Positions 3,001-63,010 are shown, counted from the stretch's first letter. The stretch: DNA of 64,000 bases from Bacteroidota bacterium (GCA_016717725.1 JADKFA010000001.1:200437-264436), one strand, 5' to 3'. Notes: generated by a model not told the origin, from the letters alone. Numbers and translations are program-made.

Positions 3001-6000
3001 TGTTGTTGATGCTGGAACATTTGAAGGCGGCGGTGGTGAAGTTATTCCAGAGGGCATATACGACGATTACAATTTATATGGCAACAACTACGCACAAGGA
3101 AATAACACTGGAATTTTCGAAAATTTAATTCCAGGAACATATACTCTAACCTATAATGACAACGGATGTATTTATGATTCTACTTTTGTTGTTGGCCAAG
3201 ATGCGACTCCAAATGCTACTATAACTTCATCGAGTTTACTATGTCCCGATTTAGGTTCTACTGATTTGAGTGTAGACTCCGTAGCAGGTTCAACATTTTA
3301 TTGGTTACCTGGAAATGAAACTACAAGTACCATTACAATTACCACTCCCGGAACTTATTATGTTGAAGTAATTAACCAGTCTTGCTATGCAACTGATTCA
3401 ATTGTGATTGTACTTGAAACATCGCCTTGCATCATACCCGGATACGAACCTCCTGCAAATGGCGCTGTTCCCAATTTGATTGGCGCTGAACTTTTTCAAT
3501 TAGCGAATGGAACTAATGTTGCAGATACAATTACCGAAAACAATACAGTGTTTTTATTGGATAGTACAGAAGTGTTTATAGAAATAATATGCGAATTCGG
3601 GCAACATGATAGCGTATACGCTTTAATGCAAACGCCTAATTATGGAATGAATAGTTTCATTGACAATGGAGACACTACTTTCATTATTACAGGAATGATT
3701 CCGATTGTTAACTTACCGAAACTAGATTCTCTTCCTTCACTTATTAACTACGTTCGACCTTATTATCCACCACTTGTAAGTAGTCAAGCGGTTGTTAACT
3801 CGATTAACACGGGCTTAACCAAAACCCAAGGTGATAAAGCGATGCGTTCGGACACCGCTAGTTTAGCTTGGGATGTTTATGGTGATGGAATAAAAATTGG
3901 AGTTATATCTGATAGCTACAATACACTTTTCGGAGATCCAGCTGGCACCGATTTATTGAATGGAGATTTACCGGGAGTAGGAAATCCTAATTACACTACA
4001 CCTGTTGAAATAGTTCAAGAATACCCTTATGGAAGAAGAACCGATGAAGGGCGAGCGATGTTACAAATCATACATGACATAGCACCTAAAGCTACCTTAG
4101 CATTTCACACGGGGTTTGTGAGTGCAGGAAATTTTGCGGAGGGAATTGCTGCATTAGATAGTATAGGTTGTGATGTTATTGTTGATGATGTAACTTATAT
4201 AACAGAACCTTTCTTTGACGATGGTGTAGTATCCAAAGCTGTAGATAAGGTGGTAGAAAATGGAACCACCTATATTTCTGCTGCAGGTAATTTTGGTACT
4301 GCTTCTTACGAAGGGATTTTTTCACCTACAGCTGCACCTGCAGGATACACGGGAACAGCTCATAATTTTGGCGGTGGTGATATCTATCAAAATATAAATT
4401 TAAAAGCTGGTACCTATACCATCGCTCTGCAATGGCAAGATTCTATTTATTCATTAGGACAATTGCCTGGAGTAGTAAACGACCTCGATATTTATTTAAT
4501 TGACAATGCTGGCAATCGTTTATTTGGTTTCAACAGAAATAATATTTGGGGAGATCCATTAGAAATTCTTCCCTTCGTTGTGAATGGAAACACGAATGCA
4601 AACATTATGATCACACGTAAATGGGGATCACAAAATGTGAAATTCAAATATGTAATTTTCCGTGGAGATGCAACCATCAATGAATATGCAAATGGTGGAT
4701 CAACTGTAGTTGGACAACCCAATGCAGCAGGTGCTATTGCCGTTGGTGCGGTTTTATATACGAATACACCTGCATTTGGTGTAAGTCAACCATCTGCAGC
4801 TTCATTCTCCTCTAGAGGAGGAGTAGAAGTAAAAGGAGCGGTAAGACAAAAGCCCGATATTATGGCACCGAACGGAGTAAACACGACAGTTTATTTAGGT
4901 GGACAAAATATTGACGGAGATTTATTTCCAAATTTCTTTGGAACATCAGCAGCTGCACCACATATTGCAGCGGTAGCAGCATTACTTCAAGAAGCGAATA
5001 AGAAATTCTCGGGAGTAGAACTCAGCCCTGCACAAATGAAATCGACTTTATTGAATACCACATTGAACATGTATGATCCAGGGTATGATGTAATTTCTGG
5101 ATTTGGATTTGTGCAACCCGACTCTGCCTTAATAACGCTTGGCCGACCACAACCGATTGCACTTAACAGATACTTGCAAGACTCCTTACTTACACCTGGT
5201 GTAGATACTGTTGAAGTATTGGTTGTAGGGAAGTTTATAAGTGAAGATGCAAAAGTTATATTTAGATATGACACTTTACCAACTACTGTTATCAATCAAG
5301 GACTACTCAGTGTAATTATTCCTCCTTTTGTAGGGAATCCACCATTAAGAATATACAATCCGCCTGCTTCTCTTACTGGATTAGATGGTGGTGCTTCTTC
5401 TGATAGCTTATATTTATTGGGGACACAAGCCATCAATGTTGTGATCACAGCGAACAATGCAATCAAGAAATATGGTGAACAATTACCTGCATTTAGTGCT
5501 ACCATTTCGATTGATGGACAGGATCTATCCAGCACTTCACTTACGCTTGCTGATTTAGGATTAGAAAACAACATTACATTTACTAGCTCTGCAACCAGCA
5601 GCAGTAATACTGGATTGTATTTTATACGTCCTGCATCTGATGTTACGAATTTATCATTACCCGCTTCTCAACTCTTAGCTGCTACTTACAACTATCAGTT
5701 TGATGATGGTGTTTTATCGGTACAAAAAATGCCTTTAGTTATAAAACCGAATGATACTACCATTACTTATGGAGATTTAATCGAAAATTTAAACTTCACG
5801 TATACTTATCCGGACGGTATGATAACGCTTTCGGAAAAAGTTGCCTTTGCCAATGAAATTAAAGCAGCTCATGAACTTGATTTAGCCAGTGAGGTTGCCT
5901 TAGTAGATGCACGAGCGTTAGTAAATGGAAGAGCGTTAGTAAATGCGGATATCGATCAATTAAGTTGCATGGCCAGTGCTCGAGCATTAGTAAATGCACG

Positions 6001-53448: not shown

Positions 53449-53461
53449 TAGCTTTAAAAAA

Positions 53462-53611
53462 TGAACGCGGATGACACGGATAAAACGGATTTTCACGGAT
53501 TCGTTCATCGCACATTGAAAAGAAGTAGATAGTCACAATGCATCATATTAGTGGATTCGCGCTTTCGTAAATTCGTAATTCGTACATTCGTATCGATTCG
53601 TAATTCGTAAC
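53462..53611. repeat. A conserved ~50-nt motif (GAACGCGGATGACACGGATAAAACGGATTTTCACGGATTCG; ACGGAT x3 at 11-bp spacing) followed by an (ATTCGTA)n heptamer satellite (53560-53611).
   Basis: Direct reading. A paralogous copy lies at 62961-63010 and degenerate relatives at 58190-58330. Confidence 0.8.
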
Positions 53612-53615
53612 CTTC

Positions 53616-55157
53616 CTAGAATTTCATTATTTTCCCTTGCACTTTATCCTTCTCAGTACTTAACGAAACAATATAAACTCCAGATGCAATATCATTCATA
53701 AAAATTTCAGTTGTAAAATACCCACCCGCTATAACATCCACTTTCCTTTCATAAACCACTCTCCCCTCCATATCAAACAACCTCAACACCCCGCTCTTCC
53801 CTTTTAACTTCGAAGCATTAACATGAATCATATTCCACTCGGGATTGTACCAGGCTTGGAAGAAAACATCATTCTTTTCATCATTTTCGGTTAGACCTAC
53901 CGTTAGTGTATCGCACGGACTCCCCACCCATGCACCGAGCTCATAATCGGGATTGTTGGGAAGGCCATTGTATGTTCTTGCACCACCGAGGTAGAAATTG
54001 AAGGGTTGAAAATCGCAGGCAAGACCTAGGGAATCGGGTTGGTTGATGACGCTGAGATTTGTGTTATAAACGTTGTATGAGGTGTCTTGATAAGGGTAAT
54101 AATTTAAATAATTAGCAGCTAAGTATATATTATCATCAGGAGCTTTTCTTAATGCTCCAAGACCAATATACGTATTTGGAGCTCCATATATATGTGTTTT
54201 ACTAGCAGAAATATTTGCGGCTATTAAATCAAACTGGTACAAAGAATCGGTACCACCTAAGGAGCTATATTGAGAATATGCAGACACATATAGCTTTGTT
54301 TCATCTGGTGATAAAGCCAATGAATTATAATAAGGGTATGGTTGAGCACTTCTTGTTGGTTCTATTACAGTTGGATTAGAAAATAAACCGGTACACCTGT
54401 CAAAATCAATATACTCAATGACACCTCCCCAACTGCAAATATACATCTTCGATCCTTCTGAGTTAAAAAATAAATGTCCACCATTTTCGTAAAATAAAGC
54501 ACCTATATTCTGTGTGTGATGCAAGGAAGGCCCATTTTCATTGACCAAATAAACATAAAATTTATTACTCAAAGAATATGGTGGAGTTGGGTCGTAATCC
54601 TTAAATATTACCCACCAATCCCTACCGTTTCCATGCTTTACCGCAGCTAAACCATCAAATGCAGGTAAGTTATTTAACTGGATATTTTTTTGTGTTACAA
54701 TTCCTGAATCACTGTTGGCCTTGAAATTAATAATAGAATAATAAAGACCGAAGGGATCAATACCGTTTACAACAATGTTCGTGAAAAATAAAGCTACTGA
54801 ATCGTTGTTAGGCTTTGGAATAAATAGTGCGGAGTGATACCAGTCTTCCCCAAAAATGGAGTCACCATTTTCAACTAATTTATGAAAACGGTTGTAAGCG
54901 TTATATCTTAACTGTGATGTTAAGCCATTAAAAACATAACCGGAATATAGCAATAAATTATTTGCACTATCACATAAACTTGCTGTCCCACTTCTTCCTT
55001 TATTCATAGAAATAAACGTAGCAGGATTTGAAGGAACACTCCAATCTATACCCGACGAATCTCCAAAGCACCAAACATTACCTTTGAATTTTTGGGCATG
55101 ACACAAACGTGTAAACAACAATAAGTATAATATTATACTAAAATTTCTCATGACCAA
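53616..55157 (-). CDS. T9SS-secreted protein, paralog A (513 aa; signal peptide, C-terminal T9SS domain).
   Basis: C-terminal domain (VLRLFDMEGRVVYERK...GVYIVSLSTEKDKVQGKIMKF) and about 90% protein identity to the 55998..57518 product. Confidence 0.75.
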   Translation of the reverse strand: MVMRNFSIILYLLLFTRLCHAQKFKGNVWCFGDSSGIDWSVPSNPATFISMNKGRSGTASLCDSANNLLLYSGYVFNGLTSQLRYNAYNRFHKLVENGDSIFGEDWYHSALFIPKPNNDSVALFFTNIVVNGIDPFGLYYSIINFKANSDSGIVTQKNIQLNNLPAFDGLAAVKHGNGRDWWVIFKDYDPTPPYSLSNKFYVYLVNENGPSLHHTQNIGALFYENGGHLFFNSEGSKMYICSWGGVIEYIDFDRCTGLFSNPTVIEPTRSAQPYPYYNSLALSPDETKLYVSAYSQYSSLGGTDSLYQFDLIAANISASKTHIYGAPNTYIGLGALRKAPDDNIYLAANYLNYYPYQDTSYNVYNTNLSVINQPDSLGLACDFQPFNFYLGGARTYNGLPNNPDYELGAWVGSPCDTLTVGLTENDEKNDVFFQAWYNPEWNMIHVNASKLKGKSGVLRLFDMEGRVVYERKVDVIAGGYFTTEIFMNDIASGVYIVSLSTEKDKVQGKIMKF

Positions 55158-55159
55158 GT

Positions 55160-55960
55160 TTATCTAATAATTACAAGTTTACATTGAGATAATGATCCTT
55201 CAGCACCGTACACTTTAACAAAGTAAATTCCTTGAAGTAAGGACTTAACATCTAAAAACCCATTTATAATTACTTTATCCATTGATAAATTACTATTAAC
55301 ATCAAATAATTGAATTCTTCCGGAAAACAATTCATCATTCAGCCGTATTTGAGAATAAACGGAAGCAGGATTTGGTTGAATCAGTAATTTAATTTCATCC
55401 AGTTGCTTGCTGAAAACAGCTCTTCTTAAATTGCTTTCGAGAGTTACATCATGAATTTCTAAGAACAATACATTACGGGCTAAATAAACTGCATCTCCAT
55501 ATAATAGTGAATGAGAATAGGCCATATCTAAAAGGAAGGAACTGTCCTGAGCGCTCAAAGTAGAATCAAAAACAATTTTGGTGAGATATAAATTATAAAA
55601 AGCAGATAAATATTCTTCCTGTTCGTTGGTATCATTAATTCCTGCTAATATTGCAGCTGCATTGCTATATTCTCTTTGTGATATCAAAACGGCAATGGAA
55701 TCGTATTTTTCAAGGTTACTTTGCTTCATAGAATAGTAAAAATCGATAAAGGAAGCATCACTTTCATCGTCCATATCGATTAATGAAGTATCACTTTTAA
55801 GCACTTTATAGGTGATTACTTTTCCGTTATACCTAAAACCACTTTGATAATTTTCATCATAACGGGCAGAATCCGCAACTACAGCACCAAACAATTCATT
55901 GCGGATGTTAAGGGATAATGGAACACCGGTATTTAGTCTCATGAGTTTACTTCGGAACAA
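55160..55960 (-). CDS. Hypothetical protein with a T9SS-like C-terminal domain (LIQPNPASVYSQIRL...GIYFVKVYGAEGSLSQCKLVIIR) but no recognisable signal peptide at the ORF start; it may be N-terminally truncated.
   Basis: ORF track plus C-terminal domain motif; the first Met follows an in-frame stop 37 nt from the neighbouring gene. Confidence 0.5.
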   Translation of the reverse strand: MFRSKLMRLNTGVPLSLNIRNELFGAVVADSARYDENYQSGFRYNGKVITYKVLKSDTSLIDMDDESDASFIDFYYSMKQSNLEKYDSIAVLISQREYSNAAAILAGINDTNEQEEYLSAFYNLYLTKIVFDSTLSAQDSSFLLDMAYSHSLLYGDAVYLARNVLFLEIHDVTLESNLRRAVFSKQLDEIKLLIQPNPASVYSQIRLNDELFSGRIQLFDVNSNLSMDKVIINGFLDVKSLLQGIYFVKVYGAEGSLSQCKLVIIR

Positions 55961-55997
55961 TTTTTCCGAACCGTTTTTGCGAAAAACACCTTATTCA

Positions 55998-57518
55998 TCA
56001 TTTCATAACTTTACCTGAAAGATAATCTTTTTCCGTTAATAAATTAACAATATATATCCCTTTTGTTATCCCTTGCATGCCAATTTCAGTGGTCACATAT
56101 CCACCCGAAATCACTTCAATTTTTTTATCATATATCAATCTTCCCTCTAAATCATACAACCTTAAACTCCCTGAATTCCCTTTCAATTTCGACGCATTCA
56201 CATGAATCATATTCCACTCGGGATTGTACCATGCTTGAAAGAACACATCATTTTTTTCATCGTTTTCGGTTATGCCTACCGTTAGTGTATCGCACGGACT
56301 CCCTACCCATGCTGCTAGTTCGTAATCGGGATTGTTGGGAAGGCCATTGTATGTTCTTGCACCACCGAGGTAGAAATTGAAGGGTTGAAAATCGCAGGCA
56401 AGACCTAGGGAATCGGGTTGGTTGATGACGCTGAGATTTGTGTTATAAACGTTGTACGAGGTGTCTTGATAAGGGTAATAATTTAAATAATTAGCAGCTA
56501 AGTATATATTACCATCAGGAGCTTTTCTTAATGCTCCAAGACCAATATACGTATTTGGAGCACCATATATATGTGTTTTACTAGCAGAAATATTTGCGGC
56601 TGTTAAATCAAACTGGTACAAAGAATCGGTACCACCTAAGGAGCTATATTGAGAATATGCAGACACATATAGCTTTGTTTCATCTGGTGATAAAGCCAAT
56701 GAATTATAATAAGGGTATGGTTGAGCACTTCTTGTTGGTTCTATTACAGTTGGATTAGAAAATAAACCGGTACACCTGTCAAAATCAATATACTCAATGA
56801 CACCTCCCCAACTGCAAATATATATCTTCGATCCTTCTGAGTTGAAAAATAAATGTCCACCATTTTCGTAAAATAAAGCACCTACATTCTGTGTATGCTG
56901 CAAAGCAGGTCCATTTTCATTGACTAAATATACATAAAATTTATTACTCAAAGAATATGGTGGAGTTGGGTCGTAATCCTTAAATATTACCCACCAATCC
57001 CTACCGTTTCCATGCTTTACCGCAGCTAAACCATCAAATGCAGGTAAGTTATTTAACTGGATATTTTTTTGTGTTACTATTCCGGAATCATTGTTGGCTT
57101 TGTAATTGACGATAGAATAATAAAGACCATAATTCAAAGAGTTTGTAACACTTACCGAAAATAAATAAATTATTGAATCATTCACACCCGGAATAAGGAT
57201 AACTGAATGATACCAGTCTTGAAAATATATTGTATCACCATTGGGTATTAATTGATGGAATTTATTTAAAACCCATCCTCTATTATTCGCAGGCTCCTTT
57301 TTATACACGGAATAAATTAATAAGTTCCCTAAACTATCGCAAATACTTGCCGTCCCACTCCTACTGTGAATCATTGATCTAAAAAAATTAGGAGAACTAG
57401 GAGATGTCCAATCAATTCCTGCCGAATCACCGAAGCACCAGACGTCGCCTTTATATTTTTGAGCCTCCATCTCCCCAAATCCAAAAAGGAATAAAAACAA
57501 AAGGAGTAGGTGCTTCAT
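55998..57518 (-). CDS. T9SS-secreted protein, paralog B (506 aa).
   Basis: Signal peptide MKHLLLLFLFLFGFGEMEAQ and C-terminal T9SS domain. Its central ~850 nt are near-identical to paralog A. Confidence 0.75.
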   Translation of the reverse strand: MKHLLLLFLFLFGFGEMEAQKYKGDVWCFGDSAGIDWTSPSSPNFFRSMIHSRSGTASICDSLGNLLIYSVYKKEPANNRGWVLNKFHQLIPNGDTIYFQDWYHSVILIPGVNDSIIYLFSVSVTNSLNYGLYYSIVNYKANNDSGIVTQKNIQLNNLPAFDGLAAVKHGNGRDWWVIFKDYDPTPPYSLSNKFYVYLVNENGPALQHTQNVGALFYENGGHLFFNSEGSKIYICSWGGVIEYIDFDRCTGLFSNPTVIEPTRSAQPYPYYNSLALSPDETKLYVSAYSQYSSLGGTDSLYQFDLTAANISASKTHIYGAPNTYIGLGALRKAPDGNIYLAANYLNYYPYQDTSYNVYNTNLSVINQPDSLGLACDFQPFNFYLGGARTYNGLPNNPDYELAAWVGSPCDTLTVGITENDEKNDVFFQAWYNPEWNMIHVNASKLKGNSGSLRLYDLEGRLIYDKKIEVISGGYVTTEIGMQGITKGIYIVNLLTEKDYLSGKVMK

Positions 57519-57757
57519 GATATAAAGGTAAGGAAAATAATTATTTGAGTTACATAAAAATTGAGCTTCGGATCGGAGTATGCTTCAAGCTACTAGCTTC
57601 AAGCTTCAAGGGTGAACAGAGGAGATAGGTATTTTACTTCCAACAATCTTTACCCCTGCGCCCCCTGCGCATCTCCGCGTTCCTTGCGCCTGCCTGCCGG
57701 CAGGCAGGGTTAAACTGTGAGTTATATGCAGTAGAATACTATTTAGAAGAAGGTATT

Positions 57758-58171
57758 CTAAATAGTTGCAATCACTTTCAACTCTATCCCAATCGGCGTA
57801 GGCAAACAATTAATCTCAACCGTAGTACGGCAAGGTTGGTTGTCTTTGAAGTACTCGGCATAGATGCGGTTGTAAATTGCGAAGTCGTCTTTCATATTCG
57901 TTAAGAAAACCGTGACGTCAATAATTTTATCCCAACTACTGCCTGCATCTTCCAAAATGTATTTGATGTTTCGAAAAACAGAATGACATTGTGCTTCGAT
58001 ATCGTAAGAAATTACTTTGCCGTCTGCATCTTGTTCAACACCTGGAATAATTTTGGTTCCGCGTTCTCTGGGTCCTACTCCCGATAAAAATAATAAATCG
58101 CCAACACGGCGCGCATGAGGGTAAAGTCCGACAGGTTCGGGGGCTTTCGAGGAGTTAATTTTAGAGTTCAT
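57758..58171 (-). CDS. ridA: RidA/YjgF-family reactive-intermediate deaminase (137 aa). The ORF track's extension to 58480 is read-through of a satellite region.
   Basis: MNSKINSSKAPEPVGLYPHARRVGDLLFLSGVGP...CRTTVEINCLP; ATG at 58171. Confidence 0.8.
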   Translation of the reverse strand: MNSKINSSKAPEPVGLYPHARRVGDLLFLSGVGPRERGTKIIPGVEQDADGKVISYDIEAQCHSVFRNIKYILEDAGSSWDKIIDVTVFLTNMKDDFAIYNRIYAEYFKDNQPCRTTVEINCLPTPIGIELKVIATI

Positions 58172-58460
58172 AATAGTAATACAAATATAAGCGAAATGGG
58201 ACAGACGCGAAATGCGAATGAACACGAAAATGCGAAAATGCGAAAAAATGGACGCGATCCCGATAGCTATAGGGAACGAATCGATACGAATGTACAAATT
58301 ACGAAAATACGGATACGCGAATTTACTAAAATCTCTTGACGCGAAACACGAATTATCACGAAATGCGAAATATACGAAAAGGCGAAAAAATTGTCCTGAA
58401 TATAGTTGAAAGGGCGAAAGCCTAAGAAATTCAAAAAAAATTCGCCAATCCACCAATACA
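58172..58460. repeat. A-rich degenerate satellite block: (CGAAAATG), (TACGAAT) and (CACCAAT)-type heptamers.
   Basis: gcgaaatgcgaatgaacacgaaaatgcgaaaatgcgaaaaaatgg ... ccaatccaccaatacaccaacccgccaattcaccaat. Confidence 0.8.
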
Positions 58461-58517
58461 CCAACCCGCCAATTCACCAATTTTTTAATGCGGGAGAGAA
58501 ACTAGATGTAGCAAAAA

Positions 58518-62960: not shown

Positions 62961-63010
62961 TCGAAATGGAACACGAATGACACGGATTAAAAGGATTTCC
63001 ACGGATTTCT
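62961..63010. repeat. Second copy of the conserved phased ACGGAT motif (GAACACGAATGACACGGATTAAAAGGATTTCCACGGATTTC) upstream of hflX.
   Basis: About 40/50 identity to 53462-53511, with the same three half-sites at the same spacing. Confidence 0.75.

Follow-up and report, generated by a model that had tools for sequence, protein, structure and literature searches.

Gene conversion among paralogous surface-protein genes is a classic process, as in the pilE/pilS and opa genes of Neisseria and vlsE of Borrelia. In contact-dependent growth inhibition (CDI; cdiA-CT/cdiI) and Rhs loci, a gene for a large secreted protein is followed by 5′-truncated copies of its 3′ end, which lack start and export signals, together with a partner gene. 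PorZ, a surface component of the type IX secretion system (T9SS) with two propellers, is a single-copy core component. Among T9SS-secreted surface proteins of Porphyromonas gingivalis, the adhesin domains of Kgp, RgpA, and HagA are recombinational mosaics (PMC5266723). Here, we analyse a stretch of 64,000 nucleotides (nt) from Bacteroidota bacterium GCA_016717725.1 (JADKFA010000001.1:200437-264436; hereafter the window), in which three adjacent genes lie on the minus strand: the paralogous genes A and B, which encode beta-propeller proteins predicted to be T9SS cargo, and a gene of 266 amino acids (aa) between them, called the middle gene. All three open reading frames (ORFs) sit where an earlier note on this DNA had placed them (Table 1). 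Most probably, the locus is a rearranged three-gene module in which A and B have recently gene-converted middles and the middle gene is the truncated remnant of a giant gene.

We compared A and B in a MAFFT alignment and at a fixed offset of 2379 nt. Over the high-identity tract (Table 1), 741 of 755 positions are identical (98.1%), and 8 of the 14 differences are clustered in one 47-nt patch. The ends of the genes are diverged, as had been proposed: the 5′ part is 56% identical over 411 alignment columns and passes into the core through a 51-nt transition at 84%, while the 3′ boundary is graded, with 123 nt at 89% followed by the final 205 nt at 66%. The similarity had earlier been put at more than 97% over about 850 nt; the near-identity itself stands, but the figure was generous, since 53880-54730 is 96.6% identical to 56259-57109, and the counterpart of this interval in B had been given as 56270-57110, about 10 nt off. 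The longest perfect run between A and B is 220 nt, against a maximum of 79 nt in 20,000 shuffles of the mismatch positions (0 of 20,000 above), and a two-breakpoint model reaches a maximal chi-square of 344; chance is excluded as the origin of the tract. A third copy of the propeller gene was sought throughout the window, and only A and B were found. Synonymous (dS) and nonsynonymous (dN) divergence, estimated by the Nei-Gojobori method on the codon alignment, follow the same partition. In the 5′ part dS is 1.32 and dN 0.46, in the core 0.058 and 0.010, and in the 3′ part 1.02 and 0.18, so that the uniform divergence which would argue against gene conversion is not what the genes display.

The closest relatives of the two genes also change from segment to segment. 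In the N-terminal 130 aa, where A and B are 45-55% identical, A is closest to the database homolog P0002 (about 90%), its 5′ end also grouping with P0003 and P0004, and B is closest to P0009 (70-89%), its 5′ end also grouping with the related locus L016. In the sorting domain, A is nearest to P0004 and B to P0002, P0016, and P0019. In the core, A and B are 93-100% identical and are each other's closest relatives among the database homologs. The grouping of the paralogs is therefore incongruent, with A and B together in the tract and with separate outside relatives in the flanks. Within the tract, A differs by 10-26% from L023, its positional ortholog, but by only 1-2.5% from B. Together with the drop in dS, the segment-wise neighbours and the distance to L023 lend support to the earlier proposal of gene conversion, or partial copying, between paralogs.

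The probable directions of transfer were read from informative sites, defined as positions at which two references differ. The first reference, L023, has the same ABC-transporter neighbours as A, with flanks 87% identical at the nt level, and the second, L016, is the closest relative of the 5′ part of B (93-98% nt). Of the 98 informative sites in the 5′ part, B carries the L016 type at 89; A leans toward L023 there. At A nt 640-850, both genes are L023-type; in this first segment of the core, A is 90% and B 89% identical to L023, with L016 at about 80%. At A nt 870-1208, the L016-type state predominates in both genes (A, 80 of 89 sites; B, 78 of 89), and the identity of A to L016 is 95.6% vs 74% to L023. 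Over the last 200 nt, A is again L023-type. The 47-nt patch forms an island in which A has the L023 state and B the L016 state, and at the protein level the island matches P0004 in A and P0002 in B. A shared sub-tract of L023 type suggests a transfer of about 210 nt from A into B, and a shared sub-tract of L016 type one of about 340 nt from B into A. Given two lineage types and an island left unconverted, the simplest reading is that of at least two gene-conversion events in opposite directions, which may have occurred in either order. The first 146 nt of the tract belong to a conserved block with few informative sites, and the donor direction covers the rest of the tract.

Both ends of the tract fall in parts of the protein that are conserved across the family, as judged from a conservation profile of 44 homologs. 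The tract starts in block 1 (A aa 136-180, majority fraction 0.79-0.90) and ends in block 2 (A aa 361-420, majority fraction 0.83-0.95), and the region between them is variable (majority fraction 0.47-0.71). These blocks could provide the near-identical DNA in which homologous recombination, presumably of RecA type, starts and is resolved, and would thus act as anchors around a variable cassette. The cassette would correspond to propeller blades, roughly the second half of the propeller. Block 2 (53892-54071 in A, with a counterpart in B) carries the motif LSVINQPDSLGLACDFQPF.FYLGGARTY.GLPNNPDYELGAWVGSPCDTL, with two conserved cysteines, and is the most conserved part of the roughly 510-aa family. 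It is also the part that AlphaFold cannot fold, with a predicted local distance difference test score (pLDDT) of 25-45, and it may be a partner-binding or processing segment.

This arrangement resembles pilE/pilS, opa, and vlsE in the non-reciprocal copying of variable segments between conserved anchors. In contrast to those systems, both partners here are complete and apparently expressible, there is no dedicated machinery or signal sequence, and the A/B event looks sporadic, being one recent tract among about six tandem pairs inspected. It resembles the P. gingivalis kgp/rgpA/hagA case in that T9SS cargo with C-terminal domains (CTDs) has exchanged internal segments, producing mosaics unlike the genome phylogeny. 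It differs from that case in the proteins involved, which are propeller and giant helical-tail proteins and not proteinases or adhesins, in the hosts, which are environmental and uncultured, and in that the exchange is between tandem neighbours 2.4 kb apart. We know of no link between proteins of the A/B type and immune evasion. The A/B locus is a fresh example of a known recombination process in a surface-protein family, clear but fairly ordinary; its value lies in being a clean, datable case of bidirectional conversion that has visible anchors and an unconverted island and can be compared with a positional ortholog.

In the proteins encoded by A and B, a predicted signal peptide is followed by a beta-propeller, then by an invariant linker, and last by a type A sorting domain. 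The N-terminus of each has a hydrophobic core (maximal 10-aa Kyte-Doolittle value 2.8 in A and 3.1 in B) and an A-Q cleavage-like site. TIGR04183, whose cutoff is 23 bits, scores 28.4 in A, 31.8 in the middle gene, and 23.1 in B, while the Pfam sorting-domain model (PF18962) scores 25 bits, just below its gathering score of 27. By sequence and model, A and B qualify as T9SS type A sorting-domain proteins, and AlphaFold shows the CTD as a beta-sandwich; the database annotation of both says the same and nothing further. In the AlphaFold model of A (pLDDT 73), the propeller spans aa 25-350 and the CTD sandwich aa 430-510. A Foldseek search with this model returned PorZ (PDB 5m11) at the top (E 9e-8), together with generic propellers, at TM-scores of 0.30/0.22. 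The likeness to PorZ lies in the architecture of a propeller plus a type A sorting domain; the TM-scores are low, and the PorZ family model NF052228 gives 14.1 bits, from the CTD only, far under its cutoff of 260. When A, B, the middle gene, the giant protein, and a 133-aa protein described below were scanned against Pfam and NCBIfam, the sorting domain was the only match. Among 8,000 candidates scored, the 510-aa family has 1,893 hits, all in uncultured Bacteroidota/Bacteroidia, with several paralogs per genome. The window's own proteins are database singletons, and P0001 is 100% identical to gene A, whose ORF spans 53616-55157 with a likely start at ATG 55151.

The origin of the middle gene is indicated by related loci in which a propeller gene follows a very large gene. 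In L003, a giant gene of 2,334 aa lies 8 nt upstream of the propeller gene, and in L002 the giant is split into genes of 1,167 and 1,032 aa with the same 8-nt spacer. A secreted protein of 133 aa precedes the giant gene in related genomes. The middle gene matches the C-terminal 255 aa of the 2334-aa gene of L003 and of the 1032-aa gene of L002 at 62.5% identity. The syntenic L023 likewise has a giant gene, at least 937 aa long, that leads into its A ortholog; the tail of this giant is 92.4% identical at the nt level to the helical part of the middle gene (dS 0.30, dN/dS 0.11). The 8-nt spacer between the middle gene and A is kept, and the window holds no giant-gene homology other than the middle gene. 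The tail match, the L023 synteny, the kept spacer, and the absence of any other part of the giant together imply that the middle gene is the 3′ end of the giant, remaining where it was. The middle gene, annotated as 260 aa from ATG 55942 (MBK9636487.1), is modelled with a pLDDT of 85 as an all-helical domain (aa 17-165) followed by a sorting domain. The helical domain has no match in the PDB, and the CTD matches those of NucA and RemA in the T9SS translocon structures 8glk and 8gl6 (8glk_D, TMt 0.76).

The earlier note had described this gene as carrying a T9SS C-terminal domain without a signal peptide, and both observations are supported. Besides the TIGR04183 score given above, its N-terminus is not hydrophobic (maximal 10-aa Kyte-Doolittle value 1.57), and an in-frame TAA at 55991-55993 blocks an N-terminal extension. 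Because of the missing hydrophobic N-terminus and the upstream stop, the middle-gene product as encoded is predicted to be unable to enter the Sec/T9SS route, and would not be secretable. An exhaustive phmmer search of 1.84 billion representatives found the giant-tail module in 489 clusters, where it forms the C-terminus of the long proteins listed (lengths 103-2,955 aa) and where the short hits contain hardly anything beyond it; among these short hits, signal-less forms of about 190-270 aa are numerous. When the middle gene was used in a word-index search, only 3 proteins came back, and metagenome contigs gave no match in either of two scans, one made with the middle protein and the other using the 31-nt junction.

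Homology to the giant gene begins at about 55891, at the motif RN..FG.VV.DS.RY, which is also where the L023 homology starts. The 107 nt upstream of this point, comprising the spacer and the leader LFRSKLMRLNTGVPLSLNI, are not homologous to the giant. Homologs of the junction and of the 3′ end of B lie instead behind propeller genes of the same sorting type in L009 and L017, with blastn matching 55737-56237 to L009 and 55887-56444 to L017. A propeller/giant-fragment/propeller trio also occurs in L022, L009, L006, and L017; that of L022, a short-read contig from ENA, has a different junction. In L017 (1-11523; JADJPB010000009.1), the array reads giant, propeller, a giant of about 720 aa without its N-terminus, propeller, a tail of about 250 aa, and propeller. 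Two of its tail fragments share a 255-nt tract at 97%, and L017 also has many frameshifts, which are either real decay or Nanopore errors. In L015 (8969-9988), a 339-aa gene fuses the signal-peptide start of the 133-aa protein to the giant tail; the fusion point is the same motif at which the window's middle gene begins, and the product is a secretable short form of the module. The recurrence of such arrays and fusions (L022, L015, and L017) indicates that truncated tails beside propeller genes are recurrent products of recombination. The layout in the window may accordingly derive from recombination of a cassette, made up of B plus a tail fragment, with a resident giant-plus-A module, inside the conserved motif.

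The probable history of the locus starts from an ancestral module, widespread in uncultured Bacteroidota, that encodes the 133-aa secreted protein, a giant of about 2,300 aa, and a propeller cargo of about 510 aa. The copy next to the ABC transporter would have lost the small gene and about 2,070 giant codons, leaving as a remnant the last ~250 codons of the giant, still 8 nt upstream of A. The second propeller gene, B, with its own promoter region, would have come to lie directly upstream of the remnant. A and B themselves are old paralogs, with synonymous divergence saturated at both ends, whose central parts were recently exchanged in a non-reciprocal manner by homologous recombination.

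Segment shuffling extends beyond this pair. A sliding-window screen for other recent tracts found patchy tracts of at least 96% identity in the giants of L013 and L019, among fragments within L017, and between metagenome-assembled genomes (MAGs). The L013 and L019 giants lie on different contigs of one MAG, and L013:3720-5527 is 98.7% identical to L019:5456-7261 over 1.8 kb while the genes are diverged elsewhere. P0002 combines an A-like N-terminus with a B-like sorting domain. Both L023 and L014 (1-10718; JANOPQ010000247.1) have a giant and a propeller gene beside the same ABC transporter as the window. In L014, also a positional ortholog, the transporter flanks are 86-91% identical to the window at the nt level, yet its propeller has 50% protein identity to A and its giant tail 32% to the middle gene. 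The module thus turns over far faster than its surroundings, and the locus is hypervariable between related species. With flanks about 90% identical and a propeller as low as 50%, it offers a view of a large module that evolves by segment shuffling. A 755-nt direct repeat further predicts pop-out deletions and assembly breaks, and several related short-read contigs end inside these genes. Three short-read contigs of one MAG (L018, L020, and L021) start in the conserved 3′ part of propeller genes, which suggests that the conserved block breaks short-read assemblies.

Other explanations of the tract can be set against these data. Strong purifying selection on a conserved protein core would also keep the middles of A and B similar, and the tract does partly overlap the family-conserved blocks; however, it lies mostly in the variable aa 181-360 (majority fraction 0.47-0.7), orthologs are 16-26% apart at the nt level over the same region, and the more than 20-fold drop in silent-site divergence, from above 1 in the ends, is beyond what protein-level selection can account for, so that this explanation is already refuted and retains next to no probability. 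An assembly or polishing artefact, in the form of a strain-chimeric consensus or of cross-polished repeats, deserves more attention because the window is a MAG contig, known as a consensus only. The 335,535-bp contig appears to belong to a set of MAGs from Danish activated sludge, built by CANU out of Nanopore reads and polished by Racon, by medaka, and by Racon using Illumina reads (PMC8012365). Short-read Racon polishing is the last step of that pipeline, and L016, L017, and L006, which come from it, carry many frameshifts and hence an imperfect consensus. A and B, by contrast, are intact and in frame, and the 14 differences between their copies of the tract are copy-specific and include the clustered island, of which each version matches independent homologs. 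A stretch of 755 nt that is 40% diverged cannot become 98% identical through polishing, repeats of 0.75 kb only 2.4 kb apart would be spanned by long reads, and the trio was found independently in the short-read contig L022; we therefore regard an artefact as very improbable, and a collapsed repeat in the assembly as unlikely. In a third scenario, a tail-plus-propeller unit was recently duplicated in tandem and the ends of one copy or of both were later replaced through recombination with other alleles of the family, from paralogs or from imported DNA, which would make the identical middle a leftover of the duplication. The 93-98% identity of the 5′ part of B to the L016 gene fits an imported or exchanged end, ends are swapped across the family, as in P0002, and the L017 arrays resemble products of unit duplication. 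Upstream of B, however, there is no homolog of the giant tail but a promoter-like spacer common to B-like genes elsewhere; the tract is chimeric with an unconverted island, for which exchange between two pre-existing genes is simpler; and at least three replacement events would be needed vs one or two for conversion. Duplication is accordingly a decidedly unlikely origin of the tract.

The middle gene, for its part, could be a maintained short gene or silent cassette, serving as a recombination reservoir or in some intracellular role, and not a remnant. Its reading frame has stayed open in the window, L022, and L009 although the proteins are 24-60% diverged, its dN/dS is 0.11-0.29, its fold is confident, and the junction and leader are conserved in three genomes; the L017 array holds progressively 5′-truncated giants, each with a propeller gene, and the signal-less forms among the 489 clusters are many. 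Against this, gene callers report open frames only, which biases the sample toward intact ORFs, many of the short database forms may be contig-end fragments, recent truncation likewise predicts a low dN/dS, the window is without a full-length giant to receive a cassette, and no recombinase or invertible element was found. We consider a maintained gene rather unlikely, although it is not a negligible possibility. A related and somewhat more doubtful idea is that signal-less 3′ fragments of the giant, with their propeller genes, are stored arrays that are recombined through the anchors into expressed full-length giants and so diversify the surface of these sludge Bacteroidota. If this were true, the cassette arrays would be to the T9SS what orphan modules are to CDI/Rhs loci or pilS cassettes to pilE, the A/B tract would capture one moment of the exchange, and T9SS organisms would have a new way of varying their surface, with the fragments as donors. 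The likeness to CDI/Rhs orphan cassettes is that of a truncated giant tail with its downstream partner kept (the middle gene plus A here, and L022, L009, L006, and L017), next to shared conserved DNA that permits recombination, an array of this kind being seen in L017. The partner, however, is a secreted propeller and not an immunity protein, and there is no sign that fragments were ever swapped in. The full-length main gene that stands upstream in CDI/Rhs loci is absent from the window, where RidA lies upstream of B, and is found only in L017; toxin or immunity families were not detected in the Pfam and NCBIfam scans of the module proteins.

Several points weigh against our preferred reading, that of recent conversion in A and B beside a truncated giant remnant. 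The directions of transfer assume that L023 and L016 are themselves unrecombined, which is uncertain because the whole family is mosaic; P0003, for instance, combines an A-like 5′ end with the other core type. Approximately five other tandem propeller pairs were examined, and in none of them is there a tract as young as that of A and B. The tract is known from a MAG consensus alone, and if the window does come from the sludge pipeline described above, short-read polishing could have blurred the exact count of differences. For a remnant, moreover, the middle gene looks healthy, with an open reading frame, a confident fold, and a dN/dS of 0.11-0.23 relative to its relatives, and it may have been truncated recently, kept fresh by conversion, or be functional in another way.

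Table 1. Positions of the features discussed, counted from the first nucleotide of the window.
Feature	Position	Strand	Basis
Gene A, propeller T9SS cargo, 511 aa (MBK9636486.1)	53616..55151	-	ORF; sorting-domain score; AlphaFold; Foldseek
Gene B, paralog of A, 506 aa (MBK9636488.1)	55998..57518	-	own predicted signal peptide and own upstream region
Middle gene, 266 aa, 3′ module of giant T9SS cargo	55160..55960	-	matches to giant C-terminus; AlphaFold; CTD match
Helical domain of middle gene	55466-55912	-	AlphaFold
Sorting domain of middle gene	55169-55387	-	TIGR04183; AlphaFold
High-identity tract, A copy	53944..54698	-	98.1% to B
High-identity tract, B copy	56323..57077	-	98.1% to A
A-lineage (L023-type) sub-tract	54302..54512 in A; 56681-56891 in B	-	informative-site map
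B-lineage (L016-type) sub-tract	53944..54282 in A; 56323-56661 in B	-	informative-site map
Unconverted 47-nt island, 8 differences	54506..54552 in A; 56885-56931 in B	-	alignment; informative sites
Junction segment, B-to-middle spacer plus leader codons LFRSKLMRLNTGVPLSLNIRNE	55892..55997	-	blastn; alignments
Intergenic region upstream of B	57519..57757	-	GC palindrome; presumed promoter region of B

The DNA upstream of B (57459-57669) is homologous to that upstream of B-like genes in L006. Within the same intergenic region, a perfect 10+10 GC palindrome (CCTGCCTGCC/GGCAGGCAGG; about 57693-57712) lies 3′ of the RidA stop and is, to judge from its sequence, likely the terminator of the RidA gene; it is followed, upstream of B, by a triple CTTGAAGC motif (within 57585-57712). 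A scan for sigma-70 promoters and terminators gave no hits above shuffled sequence, with a model not made for Bacteroidota promoters, and an Rfam scan returned only a distant tRNA. A read-through or frameshift fusion of B and the middle gene was considered and rejected, as the two are in different frames and are separated by a double stop (TGATGA) and another TAA. The ORF of 240 aa at 57758-58480 is a RidA-family gene with its real start near 58168 (MNSKINSS), the upstream 100 codons being spurious and traversing repeat DNA. A 57-nt inverted repeat (53545-53601 and 58276-58332, 84%) flanks RidA, B, the middle gene, and A. This repeat is intergenic and of low complexity, rich in ATTCGTA/ACGAAT, and recurs in the homologous L023 spacer (4377-4431); with no transposase or recombinase nearby, it was dropped as a candidate mobile element. 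A further intergenic repeat, rich in CACGGAT/ACGGAT (53459-53501 and 62964-63007, 86% over 44 nt), looks like a dispersed repeat of the repetitive extragenic palindromic (REP) kind.

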